From an uncultured Selenomonadales bacterium (lineage in GTDB: Bacteria; Bacillota; Negativicutes; Selenomonadales; Selenomonadaceae): 64,000 nt of DNA. The notes beneath the pieces were generated by a model. That model was not told where the DNA came from. It made no database searches and worked only from the letters and a program-made list of their open reading frames with translations. The DNA is taken from assembly GCA_937877545.1 (NCBI GenBank), contig CALFJE010000093.1:27519-91518 (forward strand). The letters run 5' to 3'. How positions within the stretch are numbered: the stretch's first letter is position 1; each line of letters opens with the position of its first letter. Made by a program: the position numbers and the translations under genes. Below, one piece after another: positions 1,790 through 35,675 of the stretch.

Positions 1790-2794
1790 TTATGTCAAAT
1801 TTCCAATGGCAGAAAGGTCTGCGATACAGCCCGCCCAACTCAAGCCCACGCCGAAGCCCGCCAACATGACGCGTTGCAAACCTGCCGCGCCGTGAGCCTT
1901 AACAACCTGCTCAATCGCCAACGGCACGCTGCCCGATACGATGTTGCCCGTGGTCTCTATGTCGTTGTGAAACGGCACGTCGTTTAAGTTCGCCTTATCG
2001 CGCAGGTAAGTCATCATGAACTTGTTGGCTTGGTGGAAAATGCAATAGTCCAAGTCGGCGCGGGTAATTTGCGCGGAAGCAAGAACGTTATCGACGAGCT
2101 TTGGAATTTCGCGGAGCGTGAAGTAGGTTATCGCCATGCCGTCCATAAAGACTTCGTAGTTGGAGCGGGTGTTGTGATTGTCGTCGGTGGTGAAGACTTC
2201 GGGATTGTCGCGGGGCGGATACTTACTGCCGCCGACGGGAATTATCAGCTTATCGTAACGCGAACCGTCAGAGCCGAACACGAACGCCTTCAAGCCTTCG
2301 GTATCGCCGCCGTCGAGCCAAGTGGCAGTAGCTCCGTCGCCGAACAGCGGGCGCGCCGACTTATCCGCCGTGTTGATATACTTGCTGTAAACGCTTGACG
2401 TAAGGAACAGCACATTTCGGACAAGCCCCGCCTCAATTAAACCCTTGGCAACGGCAAGCCCGTAAACGTAGCCCGAACAGCCCAGCCCGATGTCCAAACT
2501 CCCGACGCCTTTGCTTAAGCCCAAGCGGTCTTGAATCTGCGCGGCGGTGTGCGGCATCTGATAATCGGGGTGTTGCGTGCACAGCAAGATAAAATCCGTC
2601 GCGTGGCGGTCAAGCCCGTATTCGGCAAAAAGTTTCTCGGCAGCTTCCAATGCCAAATCGCCCGCAGTCTCCGCCGTCACGACGTGCCGACTTTTCACGC
2701 CGATTTTCTTCATGAATCGCGCCTCAACCAAGCCGTCGTTTTGCTCAATCTGCGCGGGCAAGTAAGAGCTTATCGCCCGTATCCTCGCAAACAT
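1790..2794 (-). CDS. 3-oxoacyl-ACP synthase III-like (FabH/KAS III family) condensing enzyme
   Basis: 334 aa. Catalytic Cys context GLGCSGYVYGL, His motif IFHQANKF, Asn motif TGNIVSGSVP. Family-typical length. Confidence 0.8.
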   Translation of the reverse strand: MFARIRAISSYLPAQIEQNDGLVEARFMKKIGVKSRHVVTAETAGDLALEAAEKLFAEYGLDRHATDFILLCTQHPDYQMPHTAAQIQDRLGLSKGVGSLDIGLGCSGYVYGLAVAKGLIEAGLVRNVLFLTSSVYSKYINTADKSARPLFGDGATATWLDGGDTEGLKAFVFGSDGSRYDKLIIPVGGSKYPPRDNPEVFTTDDNHNTRSNYEVFMDGMAITYFTLREIPKLVDNVLASAQITRADLDYCIFHQANKFMMTYLRDKANLNDVPFHNDIETTGNIVSGSVPLAIEQVVKAHGAAGLQRVMLAGFGVGLSWAGCIADLSAIGNLT

Positions 2795-2818
2795 TTAATC
2801 GCCTCCCCAATCACGAAT

Positions 2819-2849
2819 AAACCCCGAGTAGCCGGCTCGGGGTTTTTTT
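2819..2849. terminator. GC-rich hairpin CCCCGAG-tagccgg-CTCGGGG flanked by an A-run and a T-run
   Basis: Stem 2822-2828/2836-2842 with T7 at 2843-2849 on the + strand. On the - strand (direction of rfbD) the hairpin is followed by TTTATT. Orientation of function is uncertain. Confidence 0.5.
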
Positions 2850-2895
2850 ACGATATTACCATTTCGACAAGTGTAGCTTTTTCGATTAACAGAGG

Positions 2896-3741
2896 TTATT
2901 GATTCAGCTCGACCAAGTAGCGTTTGAGGGCGTCTTGCCACGTCGGGAGCCGCTCAAAGCCCGCCTCGTCCAAACTCTTTTTGCTAAGTCGCGAATTGAA
3001 CGGTCTCCGCGCAGGTGTCGGATATTCCATTGTCGGGATACCTTCGACTTCGACGTCCTTGCCGGCTTGCGCGAATATTTCCCGTGCGAACTCAGCCCAG
3101 GAGCAAAAGCCCTCGTTGGTCGCGTGATACGTCCCGTATTTTTCCGAAGCCGCCATATCCGCCAGCAAACGCGCCAAATCTACCGTGTACGTCGGGGAGC
3201 CGATTTGGTCGTTGACGACGCTGATTTTGTCCTTGGTTTCGGCGAGGCGCAACATCGTCTTGATAAAGTTGTTGCCGTTGATACCGAAGACCCAGCTCGT
3301 GCGAACGATAAAGTGCTTGTCGTCGACCATGGCGCAAACCGCGTCCTCGCCGAGGAGCTTGCTGCGCCCGTAGACGTTGACGGGCTTTTTCTCGTCGTTG
3401 ACCTCGTAAGGGATATGCCCGTCGCCGCCGAAGACGTAATCGGTGCTGATATAAATCATCTTTGCATCAATTTCGTGGCAAGCCTCGGCAACCCAGCGCG
3501 TGCCCAAGCCGTTAATAGTCAGCGCAAGCTCCTGTTCGCTCTCCGCCTTATCTACCGCCGTGTACGCCGCGCAGTGAATAATCGTGTCGGGCTTCTTTGC
3601 CAAAATGAAATCCTTTGCGCCGTGTTCGGTCGTCAGCTCCAGTTCCTCCAGCGAGGGCGCAACGTATTCCACGCCGCGTTTTGTCAGTTCCTTTGCCAGG
3701 TCGTAGCCCAGCTGTCCGAGTATTCCCGTTATCAATACCAT
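2896..3741 (-). CDS. rfbD: dTDP-4-dehydrorhamnose reductase
   Basis: 281 aa. N-terminal Rossmann motif VLITGILGQLG, YGRSK (YxxxK) motif, RmlD-family length and layout. Confidence 0.85.
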   Translation of the reverse strand: MVLITGILGQLGYDLAKELTKRGVEYVAPSLEELELTTEHGAKDFILAKKPDTIIHCAAYTAVDKAESEQELALTINGLGTRWVAEACHEIDAKMIYISTDYVFGGDGHIPYEVNDEKKPVNVYGRSKLLGEDAVCAMVDDKHFIVRTSWVFGINGNNFIKTMLRLAETKDKISVVNDQIGSPTYTVDLARLLADMAASEKYGTYHATNEGFCSWAEFAREIFAQAGKDVEVEGIPTMEYPTPARRPFNSRLSKKSLDEAGFERLPTWQDALKRYLVELNQ

Positions 3742-3742
3742 T

Positions 3743-6211
3743 TTATTTAGCCTCCTTAACTACCACGTTGATTAACTTGTTCGGCACCGCGATTATTTTC
3801 ACGATACGCTTGCCCGCCGTAAGCTCCGCGATTTTGGGCAATGTCGGCGCAAGTTTCTCCAAATCCGCCTTGCTCAAGCCCACAGCCACTTTGACGTGTT
3901 CGCGCACCCGCCCGTTGATTTGGACGACGATCTCGACTTCCTCCTCCGTTATCGCCGAAGCGTCGAAGGGTATCCAACTCTGCTTGTGCACGTCGCCCGC
4001 GAAGAATTTACTCCAAAGCTCGGCGGCTATGTGCGGCACGAACGGCGCAAGCATTATCAGCAACGCCCGCGCCGCCTCCCGCGCCAACGTCGCGTTTATC
4101 GGTTTGTCTTGGAAGGCGTGCATTGCGTTGACCAGCTCCATGAGTGCGCTAATCGCCGTGTTGAACGCAAAGCGGTCGCGAATGTCCTCGGTGACTTTTT
4201 TAATCGTCTTGTGGAGCGTCCGCCGCAACGCCGTTTCCTCGTCCGTCAAAATCTGCGCGGAGTCCTTGTCGAAATTGGCGGCGAAGATGTTCACGATACG
4301 CCAGACGCGATTTAAAAATCTGAACGAACCTTGAACGCCCTCGTCGCTCCAATCCAAATCGCGCTCGACGGGTGCCGCAAACAGGATAAACAGCCTTGCC
4401 GTGTCCGCGCCGTACTTGCCGATAATTTCTTCGGGCGATACCACGTTGCCCAGAGACTTCGACATTTTTGCGCCGTCCTTGATAACCATGCCTTGGGTAA
4501 GCAGATTGGCAAAAGGCTCGTCGTAATCCAAAAGCCCGGCGTCGCGCAAAACCTTCGTGAAGAATCTGGAATACAGCAGGTGTAAAATCGCGTGCTCAAT
4601 GCCGCCGATATATTGGTCGACGGGGCTCCAGTAATTGACTTTATCGCGGGCGAAGGGTAACTTATCGTTGTGCGGGTCGGTGTAGCGCATATAGTACCAG
4701 CTCGAACAAATGAACGTGTCCATGGTGTCGGTTTCGCGGTGAGCGTGACCGCCGCATTTCGGGCAGGTGCACTCGTTGAAGGTTTTGGAAGTCGACAGCG
4801 GACTCAACGCGCCCTGCTTAAACTCCACGTCTTCAGGCAGGAGCACGGGTAAATCTTCTTCGGGGACGAGGACTTCGCCGCACTTGTCGCAATAAATCAC
4901 GGGAATGGGCGCACCCCAATAGCGTTGCCGACTGATGAGCCAATCGCGCAGACGATAGTTGACCTTACGCACGCCGAAGCCTTGAGCCTCCGCCTCGTCG
5001 ATAATCGCGCCGATAGCCGCGTGCATCTCCATACCGCTGAACTTGCCGGAATTGACTAGGACGCCCTCCTTGTCGACGTAAGCATTGGTTTGAGCCGCGA
5101 AGTCAAGCGGGGCTTTGGGATTGTCGATAACCCAGATTTTATCCAAACCGTATTTGGTGGCGAACATCCAATCGCGCTCGTCGTGGGTGGGGACGCCCAT
5201 AACCGCGCCCGTGCCGTATTCAAACACGACGTAATTGGTAACCCAAATCTGAACCTTGCCGCCGTTGAAGGGGTTGACGCAGTAAACGCCCGTGAAAATG
5301 CCCGCCTTTTCCGATTCGGAGCTGGTGCGTTCAATGTCGCTTTGAGCGCGGGCGTGTTCGCAGAAGGCTTTAATCTCGTCGGCTTTAGCGGACACCGCGC
5401 AGATTTTATCAACCAGCGGGTGTTCGGGAGCCAGAGCAAGGAACGTCACGCCAAAGGCGGTATCGGGGCGCGTGGTGTAGACGGAAATTTTTTCGCCGAG
5501 GTCGGGAACGTCAAAGAAAAATTCCAAGCCCTCGGAGCGTCCGATCCAATTCTCCTGCATAATCTTGACGCGATTTGGCCAGCCCGTCAGCTTATCCAAA
5601 TCCGCAAGGAGTTCGTCGGCATAGGCGGTTATCTTGAAGAACCACTGCGCCAAATTTTTCTTGTGAACGTCGGAGTCGCAACGCCAACACTTACCGTCAA
5701 CGACCTGCTCATTGGCAAGGACGGTACCGCACTTATCGCACCAGTTGACGGACGCCTCCTTTTTGTAGGCAAGCCCGCGCTTATAAAACAACTCGAAGAG
5801 CCACTGCGTCCAGCGATAATAATCTGCGCGGCAAGTCTCGACCTCGCGCTCCCAATCGTAGGCAAGCCCCATAGCCTTTTGCTGAGCTGTCATGTTCTTG
5901 ATATTGGCGAACGTCCAATCGCCGGGCTTTACGCCGTGAGCAATGGCGGCATTTTCGGCGGGCATACCGAAGGCGTCAAAGCCCATGGGGTGCAGGACGT
6001 TGAAGCCAGCCATCGAACGGTAGCGGGCAACCACGTCGCCGATTGAGTAGTTGCGCACATGACCCATATGCAAGTTGCCTGACGGATAGGGGAACATTTC
6101 CAGCGCGTAGTATTTGGGGCGCGAGGCGTCCTCGGTCGTGCGATAGTAGTCGGGCGCGTCCCAGACGGCTTGCCATTTGCGCTCGACTTCCTGCGGATTG
6201 TATTTCTCCAT
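3743..6211 (-). CDS. leuS: Leucyl-tRNA synthetase
   Basis: 822 aa. Class I motifs [15 protein letters not shown] and [10 protein letters not shown]1 editing region, zinc CxxC pairs. Confidence 0.97.
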
Positions 6212-10987: not shown

Positions 10988-12616
10988 ATGGCGAAGGATA
11001 ATTTTTTTGGCAAGAAATATTTATATGAGGTATTGCCGATGTTGAAGTGGGTAGCCGAACAGGTACCGGGCGGCTTTTTCGTCTACTCCGCCAAGGAACC
11101 CTACGAGCTTTTTTACGCCAACAGCGAGGTTTTGGAAATTTACGGTTGCGAGGATTTGGACGAGTTCAAGGCTCTGACGGGTTACACGTTCCAAGGCATG
11201 GTTCACCCCGACGACTTTTCCGCAATTCAAAAGTCAATCGAGGAGCAGATAGCCGACCCCGATAACGACCGCCTCGACCACGTGGAGTATCGAATCACGC
11301 GCAAAGACGGCTCTATCCGCTGGATTGACGACTACGGACACTTTGCGACCTTCCCAGAACACGGCGACGCCTTTTATGTCTTCATCAGCGATATAACGGA
11401 ACGGCGGCTCATTCGGGAGGAAAAGTTGCGTATGGAAATGGAACTCGACAAGGCGAAACAGGCGAACGAAATCAAGGCGGCGTTCCTGTTCAATATTTCG
11501 CACGACATCTTGACGCCGCTAAATTCAATACGCGGCTTTACGGAATTGTCATTGCGGCACCTCCACGAACCCGAACTTTTAAAGACGTATCTGGAAAAAG
11601 TCGACGAATCCAGCCGGCAAATGCTTACGCTCGTCAATGACCTGCTTGACATGAGCAAAATCACCTACGGCAAGACGCAACTGCGAACCGAGGTTTGCGA
11701 CCTGGAGGAGCAAGTTTTGACCGTCCTGCACCTCTTCCGTAAAAAAGCCGACGCCAAAAATATCGCCCTCGAAAGCGTTATCAATCTGCCCCGCGAACTC
11801 GTCTATACCGACGACGTGAACTTGAGGAAAATTCTCTCCGCGCTGATTGACAACGCCATTAAGTTCACGCCCGACGGCGGGCACGTCAAAGTTACGGCGC
11901 GTAAAAAGAAAATTTCCGATTCGGGCTACGTCCGTTGCGAATTCATAATTGAGGACGACGGCGCAGGCATCAGCGAAGATTTTATGCAACGCATGTATGA
12001 GAGCTTTGAACGCGAGGAGACTTCGACGAAGACGGGGCATATCAGCGCGGGACTCGGCTTGACGATAACCAAAAAGCTCCTTGAGGCTATGGGCGGCTCA
12101 ATCGAAGTCGTCAGCAAAAAGGACGAAGGCTCCACCTTTACGGTCGGCTTGCCGTTTAAGTTCGTGCGCGACGAAGCGGAGGACGTTGCCGCCATTGATA
12201 CGATAACCGCCGATAACAACTACATGAATCGTATCCTGCTCGTCGACGACATTGAGCTTAACCGTATGCTTGCCGAGACGATTCTGGAGGAGTCGGGCTT
12301 TTCCGTCGAGACGGTTGCCGACGGTTGCGACGCCGTGGAAGCTTTTATCAAGCACCCGCCCGGCTACTATGACCTCGTGCTTATGGATATTCAAATGCCC
12401 GTAATGAACGGCTACGAGGCGACGCGTGCTATCCGTGCGCTTGACCGCCCCGACGCCAAAGTTTTGCCGATTATCGCGCTAAGTGCCAACAGCCGCGACG
12501 AGGATAAGCGTATGAGCATGGAAAGCGGCATGAATTATCATATCGCCAAGCCCTTCGACGTGGTTCAGCTTATCGCCGCCGTCAACAAATATATCGCCGC
12601 GCGAAAGGAAGTTTGA
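10988..12616 (+). CDS. PAS-domain hybrid sensor histidine kinase / response regulator
   Basis: 542 aa. PAS region, H-box FNISHDILTPLNSI, HATPase (DNAIKFT, DDGAGI, GLGLTI), C-terminal REC (LLVDD, LVLMDIQMPVMNG, AKP). Confidence 0.9.
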   Translation: MAKDNFFGKKYLYEVLPMLKWVAEQVPGGFFVYSAKEPYELFYANSEVLEIYGCEDLDEFKALTGYTFQGMVHPDDFSAIQKSIEEQIADPDNDRLDHVEYRITRKDGSIRWIDDYGHFATFPEHGDAFYVFISDITERRLIREEKLRMEMELDKAKQANEIKAAFLFNISHDILTPLNSIRGFTELSLRHLHEPELLKTYLEKVDESSRQMLTLVNDLLDMSKITYGKTQLRTEVCDLEEQVLTVLHLFRKKADAKNIALESVINLPRELVYTDDVNLRKILSALIDNAIKFTPDGGHVKVTARKKKISDSGYVRCEFIIEDDGAGISEDFMQRMYESFEREETSTKTGHISAGLGLTITKKLLEAMGGSIEVVSKKDEGSTFTVGLPFKFVRDEAEDVAAIDTITADNNYMNRILLVDDIELNRMLAETILEESGFSVETVADGCDAVEAFIKHPPGYYDLVLMDIQMPVMNGYEATRAIRALDRPDAKVLPIIALSANSRDEDKRMSMESGMNYHIAKPFDVVQLIAAVNKYIAARKEV

Positions 12617-30784: not shown

Positions 30785-30818
30785 TAACCGTCGGAGCGAA
30801 ATGCTTTGGCGGTTTTTT
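30785..30818 (+). terminator. Rho-independent terminator after the RND pump
   Basis: AACCGTC..(AGC/GCT)..GGCGGTT followed by a T-run. Confidence 0.7.
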
Positions 30819-30876
30819 TGTGTAGCTGTCAGCTAAAGATGTCAGGCTATCAGGCAGTCGACAGTGGAAAAATTTT

Positions 30877-30885
30877 TGATAAAAT
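30877..30885 (+). promoter_or_regulatory. Extended -10 element TGaTAAAAT for the XRE-led cassette
   Basis: TGATAAAAT at 30877-30885, 30 nt before ATG 30915 with GGGAGGG RBS. Confidence 0.5.
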
Positions 30886-30914
30886 ATTTTCAAAATAGCC
30901 GGGAGGGCAACTGT

Positions 30915-31289
30915 ATGAAGGAAGACTGTCGTGAGGAGATGCGTTGTATCGGAATGCGTATTGCCGGTTTCAGGAAGATAAGGAACTTGACTCAAGCCGA
31001 ACTCGCCGACAAACTCTTCATAAGCAAAAAATATCTGTCGCATATCGAAAGTGCCTCTGCCAATAAAACTATTTCATTGCCGTTACTGATAAGAATTTCT
31101 CGCGTGTTGGACGTGGAATTGGCTTTGCTCACCGACATTGACGGCGTATATAAGTCCGACTTGAAAAATTTTTGGAGCGACATGAAAGATACTTTCGCGG
31201 AAATCAAAAAGCTCAACGACGATATGGACAGAATGCTTGATCAGCTTGAGCGGGCGGATAAAATTTTTTCCGGTAAAACTAAGGAGTGA
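30915..31289 (+). CDS. XRE-family helix-turn-helix transcriptional regulator with a helical C-terminal tail
   Basis: IGMRIAGFRKIRNLTQAELADKLFISKKYLSHIESA is a classic HTH_3 pattern. ATG at 30915 preferred over 30864. Confidence 0.85.
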   Translation: MKEDCREEMRCIGMRIAGFRKIRNLTQAELADKLFISKKYLSHIESASANKTISLPLLIRISRVLDVELALLTDIDGVYKSDLKNFWSDMKDTFAEIKKLNDDMDRMLDQLERADKIFSGKTKE

Positions 31290-31294
31290 TTTAA

Positions 31295-31471
31295 ATGGCT
31301 GAGGTCAAAAGCGCGAACTGTCCGCATGGCGGGCGCAAACTCGGCGCGTATCCGTTTGACTTGGCAAACACGCAACGCACGCACGGCACTTGTCCCGCTT
31401 GCGGCAAACGCTGCACCGTCGAATACGGCAAAGGCAAAATCAAAGTCAGCAAAGGTTTAGAAGGTGATTAG
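31295..31471 (+). CDS. 58-aa zinc-ribbon protein (not in the ORF track)
   Basis: My translation: MAEVKSANCPHGGRKLGAYPFDLANTQRTHGTCPACGKRCTVEYGKGKIKVSKGLEGD. AAGGAG RBS at 31281. CPxG..CPxCG pairs. Confidence 0.65.
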   Translation: MAEVKSANCPHGGRKLGAYPFDLANTQRTHGTCPACGKRCTVEYGKGKIKVSKGLEGD

Positions 31472-31472
31472 T

Positions 31473-32321
31473 ATGGGATTGTTTGACATGTTAGACCCCG
31501 ATGAAAGACGCGCCCGCAAAGAGGCTAAAGCGGAGGCTCGCGACTATCGCAACGAGGCAAAAAATACTCTGTCGGACGCAAAGGACGTCTACGACGATTA
31601 TAAGGAATTGAAGAAAGACGCTCAGCGTGTTGCCAATGAGCTCAACGACTTCATTAGGAGTTATAACAAATATAAAGCTGACCTTTTAAAGGAGTTGAGC
31701 GGCAACATCAGCGTTTCCATAGCCAACTTTAAGAATTTTAACATAAGCAGTCGCGTCTCCGTGCCGAATATCCGCACCGGTTCCGCGCCGAATATTCCTA
31801 CCGTTACGGTGTCGTCGATTATCTCAAGTATCCCCGGTTACAATTTCAGCCCGATAGGTATTGCGCTGTCGGTTTTCAGCGACCCCTATAAAGACCGCGA
31901 TGAAGCCATGGAACAAATGGAAGCCGCGCAGGAATATCTCTACAAAGTTCAGTGTGCCAAAGCAGATATGGAGATTTTGATAAGTGCACTTAGAGATTCA
32001 AAAACTTACATTAGCAGTGAGAAAGAAATTGTTACCGAGCTTATGGGCAAGGTGCGCAAAATCGTCAGCCGGCTCAACGACGCCATGAATCGGAATTCCT
32101 TCACGGAACAAGAGGCAAATTCTATGACGGCTATAGCTAAAATCGCCGAGAAAATTAAAGAGACCCTCGAACAGCGCGTTGTAAGCAATTCCGGCAACAT
32201 TGAAGGCAATTATAAGCTGTACAGCGACCGGCTTAGGAAAATTAACGACAAGATACCCGCCGCGCCGACTATTTCCGAATCGTCTGCGTCCACGTGGATT
32301 GACGACATTATAGTTTATTGA
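31473..32321 (+). CDS. Hypothetical 282-aa coiled-coil protein with a central hydrophobic segment
   Basis: ATG 1 nt after the zinc-ribbon stop. MGLFDMLDPDERRARKEAKAEAR.. charged helices, SSIISSIPGYNFSPIGIALSVF segment. No recognisable catalytic motif. Confidence 0.7.
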   Translation: MGLFDMLDPDERRARKEAKAEARDYRNEAKNTLSDAKDVYDDYKELKKDAQRVANELNDFIRSYNKYKADLLKELSGNISVSIANFKNFNISSRVSVPNIRTGSAPNIPTVTVSSIISSIPGYNFSPIGIALSVFSDPYKDRDEAMEQMEAAQEYLYKVQCAKADMEILISALRDSKTYISSEKEIVTELMGKVRKIVSRLNDAMNRNSFTEQEANSMTAIAKIAEKIKETLEQRVVSNSGNIEGNYKLYSDRLRKINDKIPAAPTISESSASTWIDDIIVY

Positions 32322-32331
32322 GGCAAGCGTG

Positions 32332-32679
32332 ATGTATCCGCCTCAAGAACTTGACGCGATAGACTTGCTCCAACGCTCCAAAAATTTTCTTGAACACTAC
32401 TTGAGCGACCGCGAGGCGACGATAACCGCTCATAAACGCGAACTTGCCCGACTGCAAGCGCGGTGTCTTGAAGGGGCATTGCGTTTGGAACGTGTTAAAA
32501 CATTCTCCGCCCAATTCTTTGAGAATCGGCAACGAGTGAGCGCAGTTGCAATGACGGCTCTGGACAAGGCAATCGAATTGGGCGACGAGAAAGTTGCCGA
32601 CCTTGCGCTTGCGATTATCGGCGACGAATACTCAAAGGACTTTTTCGGCATGATGAATAAAGTTGGAGGGATTGTATGA
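32332..32679 (+). CDS. Hypothetical 115-aa helical protein
   Basis: ATG at 32332 with GAGG 8 nt upstream. No recognisable motif. Confidence 0.6.
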   Translation: MYPPQELDAIDLLQRSKNFLEHYLSDREATITAHKRELARLQARCLEGALRLERVKTFSAQFFENRQRVSAVAMTALDKAIELGDEKVADLALAIIGDEYSKDFFGMMNKVGGIV

Positions 32680-33041
32680 GTTTGCCCGTTGAAGTTGGCT
32701 TGCCGATTATAAAGGAACTGATAGACGCCGTGACCGAATATCAGATGTGCAAGGAACGCGAACAGACCAAACGATTGGCGATAGAAGCGCAACTGGAGGC
32801 GTGCTTGACCGTAATTAACACGAATCACGAGCAATTTTTACGCGCCATGGACGATAATCGCAACTTGGCAATGACGGCTTATGACGCGGTTGAAAAGTTG
32901 CTTGCGGCTCCGTCCGTCGCCTCGAATCCCGAATTATTGCAAAGGGTGTTGACCTTCCTGCAGAGCGTCCACGAGCGTCACAGCAAAAATTTTATCGCCG
33001 CCGTCAATGCAAGTCCGATGCGTTTGCCGAGGATAGGGTGA
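32676..33041 (+). CDS. Hypothetical 121-aa helical protein
   Basis: ATGA overlap with the previous ORF. No recognisable motif. Confidence 0.6.
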   Translation: MSLPVEVGLPIIKELIDAVTEYQMCKEREQTKRLAIEAQLEACLTVINTNHEQFLRAMDDNRNLAMTAYDAVEKLLAAPSVASNPELLQRVLTFLQSVHERHSKNFIAAVNASPMRLPRIG

Positions 33042-33298
33042 GTGACATGACTAAGGAGCAGGAAGAACTTCGCGCCCGTATGCGGGAAAATCAGGAATTG
33101 TTGAACACGATTATCCGACACGAAGCCGCCGAACAACAGGCAATCACGCAGAATCTTGCGGAGTTCCATGAAGCCTTAGACGCTCGGAAAAAGATAATCA
33201 ACGCCGCGCTCGACGAAAAACGCGATAAAGATTTTGCAGAGCTTTCCGCGCAGATTCAACGGCTCAAAGACGCAATATCAAACCGCCCGAACGATTGA
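33038..33298 (+). CDS. Hypothetical 86-aa coiled-coil protein
   Basis: GTGA overlap with the previous ORF (alternative ATG at 33047). Highly charged heptad-like sequence. Confidence 0.55.
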   Translation: MSDMTKEQEELRARMRENQELLNTIIRHEAAEQQAITQNLAEFHEALDARKKIINAALDEKRDKDFAELSAQIQRLKDAISNRPND

Positions 33299-33311
33299 GG
33301 GCGATTTTTTT
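33284..33311 (+). terminator. Rho-independent terminator ending the cassette
   Basis: CGCCC-gaacgattga-GGGCG-A-T7. The stop codon lies in the loop. Confidence 0.6.
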
Positions 33312-33324
33312 CGACGGTCGCAAA

Positions 33325-33353
33325 TTTACAAGTCGCCGCATCTTTGGTATAAT
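33325..33353 (+). promoter_or_regulatory. recA promoter
   Basis: TTTACA (33325-33330), 17-nt spacer containing TG, TATAAT (33348-33353). Confidence 0.7.
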
Positions 33354-34492: not shown

Positions 34493-35326
34493 TTACAGAA
34501 CTTTATAAGTCAGCGTGGTCTTGCCGATTAGAATTTTATCGCCGTCGCGGAGCTCACAGCGGCTAATCGGCGTCTTATTGACCCAGGTACCGTTGAGACT
34601 GCCCGCGTCGTAGAGAACGTGTCTGTGCCGCTCGTAGGCAATGTAAGCGTGAATTCGCGAAGCACTTTCGTCGTCGAGGACAAAGTCGTTGGTCTCCTTA
34701 CGTCCCAGATAAATTTGTTTTTCGCCGCAGACGACCTCCGCCTTGTCAAAATCGGTAATGACCGCCAAATTGTATTCAACCCTGCGCGGCGACGCGGTGC
34801 GCATAGTCTCGACGATTCTCATTCTGTCGGCAACCAGCGTCTCGTCGTCGTCGGCGGTGATTCTGTCCTCAAGCAGGGTTTGGCTCAGCACGTCGTTTTC
34901 CAAGTCAATGGTATCCTGCGCGGGCTCGTCGACGTAGCCCGACGCAATCACAATGGCGTTATCGCCGGCAGCCATCTTTTTAATTTTGACGGAAAGCGCA
35001 CCGTCCATGAAACAGTTTTCGCGAATGACTTTGCGCTCAACCGCCTCGTGCAAGGATTTAATCAGCCGCGCCGCGCTCAGCCGGTGACAATCCTCCTCGC
35101 AAAGATATATCGTGTAGGAATTCGGCACCCGATTGTCCCGCGCCTTTTGCTTTGCCACTTCCCGCTCCAATGCCTTGATTAGTTCCCTCGGCTCGACCTC
35201 GCCGCGTCGTTGAAATAAGTTCGCCAACTGCCCCGTTATCACGCTTGCCAACTTCAATCTTGCCGCCTCCTTCGCAAAAAAAGACGCTCCCCGAAAGGTC
35301 TCGGACAGCATCTTTTGCGTAATCAT
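34493..35326 (-). CDS. FhaA-like protein (DUF3662-type N-domain plus C-terminal FHA domain)
   Basis: C-terminus: YLGRKETNDFVLDDESASRIHAYI..YDAGSLNGTWVN..GDKILIG (FHA). Start uncertain (TTG 35347, ATG 35326 or 35311). Confidence 0.8.
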   Translation of the reverse strand: MITQKMLSETFRGASFFAKEAARLKLASVITGQLANLFQRRGEVEPRELIKALEREVAKQKARDNRVPNSYTIYLCEEDCHRLSAARLIKSLHEAVERKVIRENCFMDGALSVKIKKMAAGDNAIVIASGYVDEPAQDTIDLENDVLSQTLLEDRITADDDETLVADRMRIVETMRTASPRRVEYNLAVITDFDKAEVVCGEKQIYLGRKETNDFVLDDESASRIHAYIAYERHRHVLYDAGSLNGTWVNKTPISRCELRDGDKILIGKTTLTYKVL

Positions 35327-35333
35327 TGGAATT

Positions 35334-35675
35334 TCAAACCAGCTCAATCAGAACCATGGGCGCGGCGTCTCCGCGACGGGGCGCAAGTTTCAAGATTCTG
35401 GTGTAGCCGCCCGCACGGTCGTTGTATTTTCCGGGTATCTCCTCGAAGATTTTATGAACAACGTCGTTATCGGCGACGAGGTTTACAGCTTGACGGCGTG
35501 CGCTAAGGTCGCCGCGTTTGGCGAGCGTTATAACTTTTTCGGCGAACTTGCGCAATTCCTTGGCGCGAGCCTCCGTCGTCTCTATACGCTCATATTGGAA
35601 GAAAGCCGACAGCAGACTTTTGAACAATGCCTTGCGTGCGCCGCTGTTTCTGCCGAGTTTCCTGTAGCTCATCAA
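35334..35675 (-). CDS. rplQ: Ribosomal protein bL17
   Basis: [21 protein letters not shown]...[10 protein letters not shown]. Confidence 0.96.

Follow-up and report, generated by a model that had tools for sequence, protein, structure and literature searches.

What is the small gene cassette directly upstream of recA in an uncultured Selenomonadales bacterium, and which of its genes belong together? The cassette lies at positions 30858-33311 of a 64-kb stretch of contig CALFJE010000093.1 (assembly GCA_937877545.1), hereafter called the window. It encodes an XRE-family helix-turn-helix (HTH) regulator, a small zinc-ribbon protein and four further proteins, which we designate A, B, C and D. A preliminary description of the same DNA had presented the six genes as one self-contained unit without an assignable family. 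An open reading frame (ORF) check of the window found all six genes where they had been placed (Table 1). Sequence comparisons indicate that A-D form a genuine conserved module that has not been described before, and they make it a credible candidate for a system, as yet uncatalogued, that acts on membranes in defence or stress. The core spans 1.8 kb; with the repressor gene and the promoter of the cassette included, the length is 2.4 kb.

The conservation of the cassette was followed in a context survey of 16 non-redundant loci (numbered with the prefix L). In all 16 loci, gene A was accompanied by at least one B/C-type gene, usually by two, so that the co-occurrence in other genomes that had been named as a check was indeed found. 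The module was retained even where the identity of A to the window copy fell to about 17-26%, and L029, whose A shares 24% identity with that of the window, still has the gene order A-B-C-D. D was present in nine of the 16 loci. The XRE gene and the zinc-ribbon gene, in contrast, each occurred in only three loci, and, like the location next to recA, they are limited to sublineages of Selenomonadaceae. Therefore, the conserved unit comprises four genes and not six, and the idea of a six-gene unit had to be given up: only A, B/C and D travel together. The core recurs in gut and rumen bacteria.

Protein A has homologues in 29 close clusters, all of which are full length and at least 46% identical, and their only named source is metagenome-assembled genomes of Selenomonadaceae from ruminants. 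A profile search of 1.84 billion protein representatives retrieved 108 members at E<=1e-3, all of about 250-340 amino acids (aa) and without fusions, and a metagenome scan returned two short loci only. In the AlphaFold2 model of A (predicted local distance difference test, pLDDT, of 66), helices were predicted at residues 9-89, 138-205, 212-240, 245-260 and 274-281. The alanines at positions 22, 29 and 36 are spaced by seven residues, and further conserved alanines are found at 145 and 152; this spacing suggests a tight antiparallel packing of the helices.

Two hydrophobic elements of A are conserved in position. One is the N-terminal motif, which was quantified for the 71 sequences, out of 86, that start with MG or MS. 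G2 was present in 65 of these, phenylalanine or leucine in 66 at position 3 and in 62 at position 4, and D5 in 47. The motif may act as a membrane anchor; its hydrophobic moment is barely raised (0.42 versus 0.36 for the background). The other element is a central segment, at which the hydropathy of the family peaks (positions 117-135). The most hydrophobic 19-mer falls at this peak in 58% of the members, versus 25% expected. The segment is a true transmembrane helix in one family member (P0088), and in a subgroup (P0107, P0119 and P0121) the hydrophobic region extends over about 50 residues, in the manner of a hairpin. In the window copy, the disordered linker contains a 24-nucleotide (nt) tandem duplication (31758-31805, 79% identical) that encodes VPNIRTG/SAPNIPTV, which suggests a recent expansion of the loop.

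Proteins B and C are paralogues. Iterative jackhmmer searches, which were confined to the ORFs of the examined loci, retrieved every C when started from B and vice versa, and the matches were exclusively ORFs adjoining A. The two proteins share the motif Y-x3-[KR]E-x-E-x-T-x-R. The AlphaFold2 model of C (pLDDT 83.8) is a helical hairpin made of one long helix (residues 5-77, 73 residues) and a return helix (85-112). Homologues of C adjoin A in L017, L020, L022, L023, L027 and L029. Homologues of D, with NL..FH.A.D in common, directly follow C in L001, L005, L007, L010, L011, L017/18, L023 and L029, and none was detected in L020 and L022. An alternative start codon of D is the ATG at 33047. The four helical proteins had previously been listed as four kinds of coiled-coil proteins; B and C turned out to be one family. 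A possible relationship of A to this family was rejected (hhalign probability 0.8%). The prediction that all four proteins are helical has gained support to different degrees: for A and C from the structure models, for B through its paralogy to C, whereas D is presumed to be helical.

None of the proteins A-D had a credible match in Pfam, NCBIfam, PADLOC or PHROGs, for which 62 diverse members were used in the case of A. Profile searches of PDB sequences with A and B/C, Foldseek searches of the PDB with the models of A and C, and of viral models with A, also yielded no credible match. Among the PDB sequences, B/C matched de novo designed helical repeats alone. The best Foldseek PDB match of the C model had E=0.95; for the A model the best value was 0.26, with none at E<=0.001, which is a weak negative at a pLDDT of 66. 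No library scan detected a catalytic domain, a P-loop, or a DNA-binding or nuclease domain in A-D. These results are in line with the preliminary description, according to which the helical proteins lack catalytic, P-loop and nuclease signatures and fit no described family, and no credible profile hits to phage, toxin-antitoxin (TA) or described defence families were obtained. The recurrent weak matches of A were to generic coiled-coil families (DUF948, LmuB, JetC and ZorA). Among the catalogued anti-phage systems (PADLOC 2.0.0, systems up to 2023), a minority of the A members had coiled-coil-type hits (LmuB, JetC, ZorA and LeoBC) and B/C had none. A description of the A-D module was not found in the literature. 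Together, the searches indicate that three families (A, B/C and D) are absent from Pfam, NCBIfam, PADLOC and PHROGs, and that the composition of the module is unlike that of any catalogued system.

Several known systems resemble parts of the module. The structures of bacterial dynamin-like proteins (BDLPs) contain long antiparallel helices that end in a hydrophobic, membrane-inserting tip, known as stalk and paddle. Like BDLP, DynA and the LeoA/LeoBC proteins of Eleos, A has antiparallel helices with a hydrophobic tip, and in two lineages the module stands in line with tandem Dynamin_N genes; unlike these proteins, A-D have no GTPase domain, and the window has no dynamin gene. Weak matches of the window A to DLP_helical (E=0.011) and to the C-terminal helical part of LeoBC (E=0.0074) were rejected as coiled-coil noise, as LeoBC was matched by 4 of the 62 members, none of them dynamin-adjacent. 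By the criterion of a dynamin-type GTPase domain, A-D do not count as an Eleos or dynamin system: no Dynamin_N hit was found in A-D, and Dynamin_N occurs only in distinct genes next to the module, in L020 and L029. Toxins of the ClyA family are all-helical, elongated proteins of about 300 aa with a hydrophobic tip in mid-sequence and a functionally important N-terminus, and are encoded in multi-component operons. A resembles these alpha-pore-forming toxins (ClyA, YaxAB/XaxAB, Hbl/Nhe, AhlABC) in size, helices and tip element, whereas B, C and D are small hairpins and not ClyA-like paralogues, and an export signal is absent. ClyA, Hbl-B, NheA and YaxAB were neither among the Foldseek PDB top 50 for A nor found in the PDB profile searches. 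The likeness to the dynamin stalk and paddle and to ClyA is thus to be read as architectural analogy only. The PADLOC profile PDC-M09A was also considered. Its length of 282 equals that of A, and 8 of the 62 members aligned weakly and collinearly with its C-terminal third. It was discarded, because the best E-value of 4.7e-4 is below significance, the window A has no match, and B/C match no PDC-M09 partner; literature on PDC-M09A was not found.

The preliminary description had taken the position next to recA as functionally meaningful. Within Selenomonadaceae, the module was found at four sites, i.e. upstream of recA, at birA/PNPOx-kinase, at amylase-DUF1385/PriA, and after fhs. In the window, L001-4 and L011, the module is immediately followed by recA, though the upstream flanks differ; L011 has the arrangement of the window plus one extra gene. 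In L027, a gene for a resistance-nodulation-division (RND) pump is directly followed by recA and recX, which equals the window site without the cassette, and a very divergent copy of the module is located after guaA, four genes from recA. Because of the varied sites and the empty RND-recA junction in L027, the recA adjacency is best regarded as an insertion-site feature of one subclade, and its functional interpretation was abandoned.

Other properties also point to mobility. The guanine-plus-cytosine (GC) content of the cassette is 0.477 versus about 0.54 in the flanks, which places it in the bottom 0.5% of windows of equal size, in agreement with the AT-richness and the horizontal acquisition proposed before. 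Scans of the 64-kb window for tRNA genes, an integrase, flanking repeats and Rfam families were all negative, and thus the earlier observation that an integrase and attachment-site (att) repeats are absent holds. In L023, the module is part of an 8.3-kb island with a GC content of 35% versus 44-45% in the flanks, and a direct repeat of the 3' part of purB (163 nt, 97% identical; 3748-3910 and 12228-12390) borders this island on both sides. The island contains two small ORFs, a gene for an IetA-like AAA protein (821 aa; 4e-25), an unassigned 437-aa partner, a 58-aa ORF and A-B-C-D; an integrase is not present. L017 and L018 carry the same block between different flanks. In comparison with L011, the identities are 91% for the RND pump, 80% for RecA and 52-65% for A-D, and in comparison with L027 they are 68% for RecA and 26% for A. 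Hence, A-D diverge much faster than their neighbours. Own signals, the GC dip and the varied insertion sites support the view that the cassette is a self-contained, horizontally acquired accessory operon, and the module behaves as mobile cargo. In L011, the closest syntenic relative, the genes for the RND pump and the XRE protein are separated by a 443-aa ORF (3963-5294) that is absent from the window; by eye, the N-terminus of this ORF contains a GIY-YIG-nuclease-like motif (GVIYLL...YVGQT). Because this ORF is missing in the window, the RND/XRE junction looks like a small variable hotspot.

The neighbourhoods of the distant members were analysed in 11 informative lineages, and raw counts were made of conflict-type genes within about 10 kb. 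Such neighbours were found in 6 of the 11 lineages. The genes cas6, cas2 and cas1 are located nearby in L022; L014 encodes DUF4145 and a CorA-like protein that belongs to the CRISPR-associated type (2.4e-21); the IetA-like protein mentioned above belongs to L023; a WYL gene (3.6e-27), a DEDDh gene (3.6e-29) and an AAA gene are present in L017; and L018 has a 2143-aa DEAD/Helicase_C/MZB helicase, UvrD and NERD. Two diverged lineages (L020 and L029/L030) have tandem Dynamin_N genes just downstream of the module and on the same strand. SLT and HTH_17 genes lie beside the block in L017. Comparison of unassigned neighbour genes with PDB sequences yielded nothing informative. Carriage by phages was not observed in a tblastn search of 50,697 phage records, and no phage or plasmid carriage was found among sequenced phages, plasmids or IMG/VR contigs (four queries for IMG/VR).

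Several of these loci deviate in their arrangement. In the same-strand cluster of L020 (2269-11522), A-B-C is preceded by a TerB-like gene (420 aa) and followed by two Dynamin_N genes, TerB and a fusion-type patatin-Dynamin_N gene. That of L029 (65-11573) starts with a 209-aa gene, followed by A-B-C-D, ORFs of 87 and 64 aa, Sel1 and DUF1232; next come two Dynamin_N genes (917 and 945 aa), and a pair of small ORFs is last. Both clusters may represent uncharacterised dynamin-based conflict systems. L014 departs from the usual order with A in first position, as the B/C-type gene is followed by a 106-aa ORF and then by A; directly 5' of the B/C-type gene, an 864-aa protein with a C-terminal CorA-like domain and a faint N-terminal match to DHH is encoded (2349-4943). 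In L017 (5117-6501) and L018 (8910-10294), the module has two additional genes, one for a cysteine-rich protein of 68 aa (CxxC...CxxC) and one for a protein of 380 aa that weakly matches the N-terminus of BnzA (8.5e-8). On the upstream side, it is accompanied by a divergent HTH_17 gene and the gene for a helical protein of 217 aa. Thus, in a second lineage a small zinc-binding protein, non-homologous to that of the window, accompanies the module.

What might the module do? We tentatively favour the view that A-D constitute a membrane-acting anti-phage or envelope-stress module, which retains as the best reading what had been proposed at the outset, a stress, membrane-remodelling or anti-phage role. 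The defence islands and the dynamin neighbours of the distant homologues argue for it, as do the conservation and mobility of the module, the two hydrophobic elements of A and the lack of a catalytic domain, and the function would follow from neighbourhood and architecture. Within this view, roughly two thirds of the weight falls on anti-phage defence and one third on general envelope stress. A would be the membrane-engaging subunit, a long antiparallel coiled coil whose N-terminal motif and hydrophobic loop at the tip of the coil would reach into the inner membrane from its cytoplasmic side. The hairpins of B and C would form a heterodimer that binds A, D would join as a short adaptor, and translational coupling would set the stoichiometry of A-D. 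In this sublineage of Selenomonadaceae, the acquired XRE repressor and its zinc-ribbon partner would hold the module off until a signal arrives. Upon phage infection or envelope damage, the complex would assemble on the membrane, which would then be stabilised or reshaped, as by PspA or dynamin-like proteins, or permeabilised, as in abortive infection. The position next to recA would be an accident of insertion. A more far-reaching proposal, which we regard as rather doubtful, is that A-B-C-D are a new kind of machine for membrane immunity or integrity that consists of small helical proteins alone, in which A, as a GTPase-less coiled-coil paddle with a PspA-like N-terminal motif acquired by convergence, would detect or counteract attacking phages at the inner membrane, by itself or together with paired dynamin-like GTPases.

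A number of observations weigh against a membrane-acting defence or stress role. A-D have no homology to any characterised protein. The flanks are plain housekeeping genes in the window and in three other Selenomonadaceae lineages, and the context sample is small, with 11 lineages and without a genome-wide background score. The lack of phage or plasmid carriage is neutral for a defence system and offers no direct link to phages. Coiled-coil proteins evolve fast whatever their function, so that fast divergence is not specific for conflict. The N-terminal motif of A includes an acidic residue and is hardly amphipathic by its hydrophobic moment, and it could be a protein-docking peptide instead. 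Finally, the central segment of the window A has a Kyte-Doolittle 19-mer average of 1.2, which is below transmembrane grade. If a membrane-acting role is true, the known means by which bacteria defend and repair their membranes would include an enzyme-free, all-helical system, and candidate co-factors would be at hand for bacterial dynamin-like proteins, the partners and triggers of which are poorly known. The module defines two families (A and B/C) and a third (D), and it is compact, and easily cloned and tested. Even without a role in defence, it would be a clean small mobile islet between housekeeping genes for which an empty-site comparator is available.

Other explanations have to be considered. 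That the module is mobile-element cargo with a task other than defence, such as TA-like addiction, entry exclusion or maintenance, with A as a toxic membrane protein restrained by B, C and D, is unlikely. It would agree with the att-like repeats at islands, the variable insertion sites and the low GC content, as well as with an upstream XRE gene, as in many TA and prophage modules, and tight translational coupling; the SLT and HTH_17 genes of L017 hint at a conjugative or integrative element. However, A-D match no TA family in NCBIfam or PADLOC and are not carried by plasmids or phages, a four-gene stoichiometric helical complex would be unlike the known TA pairs, and the repeated linkage to dynamin genes would be left unexplained. 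It is very improbable that the module is an accessory of DNA repair or recombination with a functional tie to recA. The occurrence directly upstream of recA in several loci, the L027 copy at a distance of four genes, and the similarity of the XRE protein to CapH-type repressors speak for such a tie, but close relatives occupy unrelated sites and distant ones defence islands. Moreover, the cassette ends in a terminator of its own, recA retains a separate, conserved promoter, A-D contain no DNA-binding or nuclease domain, and no CapP-like protease is encoded. Least probable of all is a prophage remnant with structural, tape-measure or lysis genes. The matches that could suggest it, of A to the 'tail protein' phrog_788 (E=1e-5) and sporadically to tape-measure PHROGs, are rare: phrog_788 was found in 2 of the 62 members and was discarded as coiled-coil noise, and phrog_4704 in 4. 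In addition, the phage records and IMG/VR contained no match, Foldseek against viral models found no credible one, and other phage genes are absent nearby.

Two further alternatives concern the proteins themselves. The preliminary description had seen a faint likeness between the N-terminus of A and PspA, Vipp1 and ESCRT-III proteins. The alpha0 region of PspA/Vipp1 is an amphipathic helix of 20-30 residues that starts with MGLFDRxxRV and is followed by an EDPE linker (PMC13051332). A shares the start MGLFD and has DPDE where PspA has EDPE; both have long helices and no enzymatic domains, and A, like PspA/Vipp1 (IM30), might plausibly be associated with the membrane periphery and linked to stress. 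The motif of A, however, comprises about 7 residues and lacks RxxRV, a large hydrophobic loop of about 40 residues replaces the tight turn at the hairpin tip, and the module has obligatory partners, B, C and D, that Psp systems do not have. Neither PspA_IM30 (PF04012) nor Snf7 (PF03357) matched the window A at E<=1, and neither was among the families matched by at least 3 of the 62 A members. No PspA, Vipp1 or CHMP chain came up when the PDB was searched with profiles (E<=10) or with Foldseek (top 50), and a viral PspA model matched A with E=0.86 and a template-modelling score of 0.24-0.28. With five matching N-terminal residues and negative tests of sequence, profile and fold, kinship was rejected, and there is very little chance that A is a divergent membrane-repair protein of the PspA/Vipp1/ESCRT-III type with accessory subunits. 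Quite improbable, too, is a set of secreted or secretion-associated helical proteins, such as WXG100 or LXG-Lap proteins or substrates of the type VII secretion system with their chaperones. Esx pairs, and Lap1/Lap2 with LXG proteins, consist of small helical hairpins beside a larger helical protein. The paralogous hairpins of about 110 aa next to A recall this arrangement, and 3 of the 62 A members had a weak YwqH-like match (best E 0.0015). Yet no Pfam match to WXG100, LXG or Lap was obtained for A or B/C, the B/C alignment contains no WXG motif, and none of the examined loci encodes a secretion ATPase (FtsK/EssC). A has no toxin domain, and the window clade resides in diderm Selenomonadaceae.

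Table 1. Coordinates of genes, protein segments and signals in the window
Feature	Position	Strand	Details	Basis or context
Terminator of the RND pump	30786-30814		followed by a T-run; 5' of the cassette	signal scan
Putative cassette promoter	30858..30885	+	TCGACA-16 nt-TAAAAT, TG ahead of the -10 (extended -10)	scan, 10/12 matches
XRE-family HTH regulator	30915..31289	+	124 aa, helical C-terminal tail of ~50 aa	Pfam HTH_3
Zinc-ribbon protein	31295..31471	+	58 aa, CPHG...CPACG...C	conserved ORF between HTH gene and A
Protein A	31473..32321	+	282 aa, core component, predicted long antiparallel coiled coil	AlphaFold2 and homologue search
N-terminal motif of A	31473..31493	+	MGLFDML; family pattern M-G-[FL]-[FL]-D-hydrophobic-hydrophobic	
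Central loop of A	31761..31880	+	residues 97-136, with hydrophobic segment SSIISSIPGYNFSPIGIALSVF	pLDDT <50
Protein B	32332..32679	+	115 aa, core component, B/C family	jackhmmer
Protein C	32676..33041	+	121 aa, core component, paralogue of B	jackhmmer, AlphaFold2
Protein D	33038..33298	+	86 aa, frequent fourth component	homologues directly 3' of C
Terminator-like hairpin	33284..33311	+	CGCCC/10-nt loop/GGGCG plus AUUUUUUU (T7), 5-bp GC stem	overlaps the D stop codon
recA promoter	33325-33353		TTTACA-17-TATAAT	3' of the post-D hairpin; conserved in L011 and L001

The ORF and signal scans bore out the gene list, the tight or overlapping junctions and the promoter-like extended -10 element of the preliminary description. 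The ATG of A is located 1 nt past the TAG of the zinc-ribbon gene, and the B/C and C/D junctions consist of an ATGA and a GTGA overlap, respectively. The block TCGACA...AATTTTTGATAAAATA is also conserved ahead of the XRE orthologues of two other species, L011 and L001, and the conserved block at the XRE promoter includes TTTTTGATAAAATA; a function of this region as a promoter is likely from these sequence features. A possible operator palindrome in the promoter was dismissed, as it reflects trivial AT-rich symmetry alone. The claim that the cassette has its own terminator stands in part. A hairpin with a T-run is present after D and is found at the same place in L011, where it is strong (z-score of -2.39), and in L001, whereas the hairpin of the window (-9.7 kcal/mol, z-score of -1.26) is weak when taken alone.

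The two genes upstream of A appear to be lineage-specific regulatory additions outside the conserved core. The XRE protein belongs to the HTH_3 family (PF01381; 39.6 bits, gathering cut-off 23, E=5.5e-10), and its PADLOC matches were HTH_VI (3.7e-12) and capH (5.2e-8). Its occurrence is restricted to the window, L001 and L011 (orthologues with 78-79% identity); L005 has an unrelated 63-aa HTH gene instead, and L007 and L010 have no HTH gene. CapH-type repressors, which gate defence operons, resemble the XRE protein in the N-terminal HTH and the helical tail, and the XRE gene likewise heads its operon behind a conserved promoter block. They differ in that the cassette has no CapP-like protease partner, the zinc-ribbon gene coming next, and in that most module loci lack the XRE regulator. 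A mimicry of A by the C-terminal tail of the XRE protein (LNDxM in both) was rejected, because the similarity is insignificant (BLASTP E=0.09).

The 58-aa zinc-ribbon ORF had been proposed as a gene from the window alone, and it is indeed real, as orthologues are found at the same place in L011 (E=2e-24, 76% identity) and L005 (E=2e-21, 67% identity). It is restricted to these two loci and the window. With Zn_ribbon_16 of Pfam it reaches 19.2 bits, which is under the cut-off of 27. The cysteines of the window protein are arranged as CPHG...CPAC plus C40, whereas the orthologues in L011 and L005 start with CPHCG, and that of L011 also keeps the full second knuckle CPACG. The first knuckle of the window copy (31319-31330) is thus degenerate, with CPHG versus CPHC in both orthologues, and this copy may bind zinc via the histidine or may be impaired.

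On the other side of recA, recX follows in L001, L011 and L027. A tblastn search of the 64-kb window did not detect a recX homologue. Instead, a convergent gene on the minus strand (34493-35347) abuts recA in the place of recX, and it encodes a 284-aa protein with a C-terminal FHA domain of the GarA/Rv1827 type (E=4e-10).

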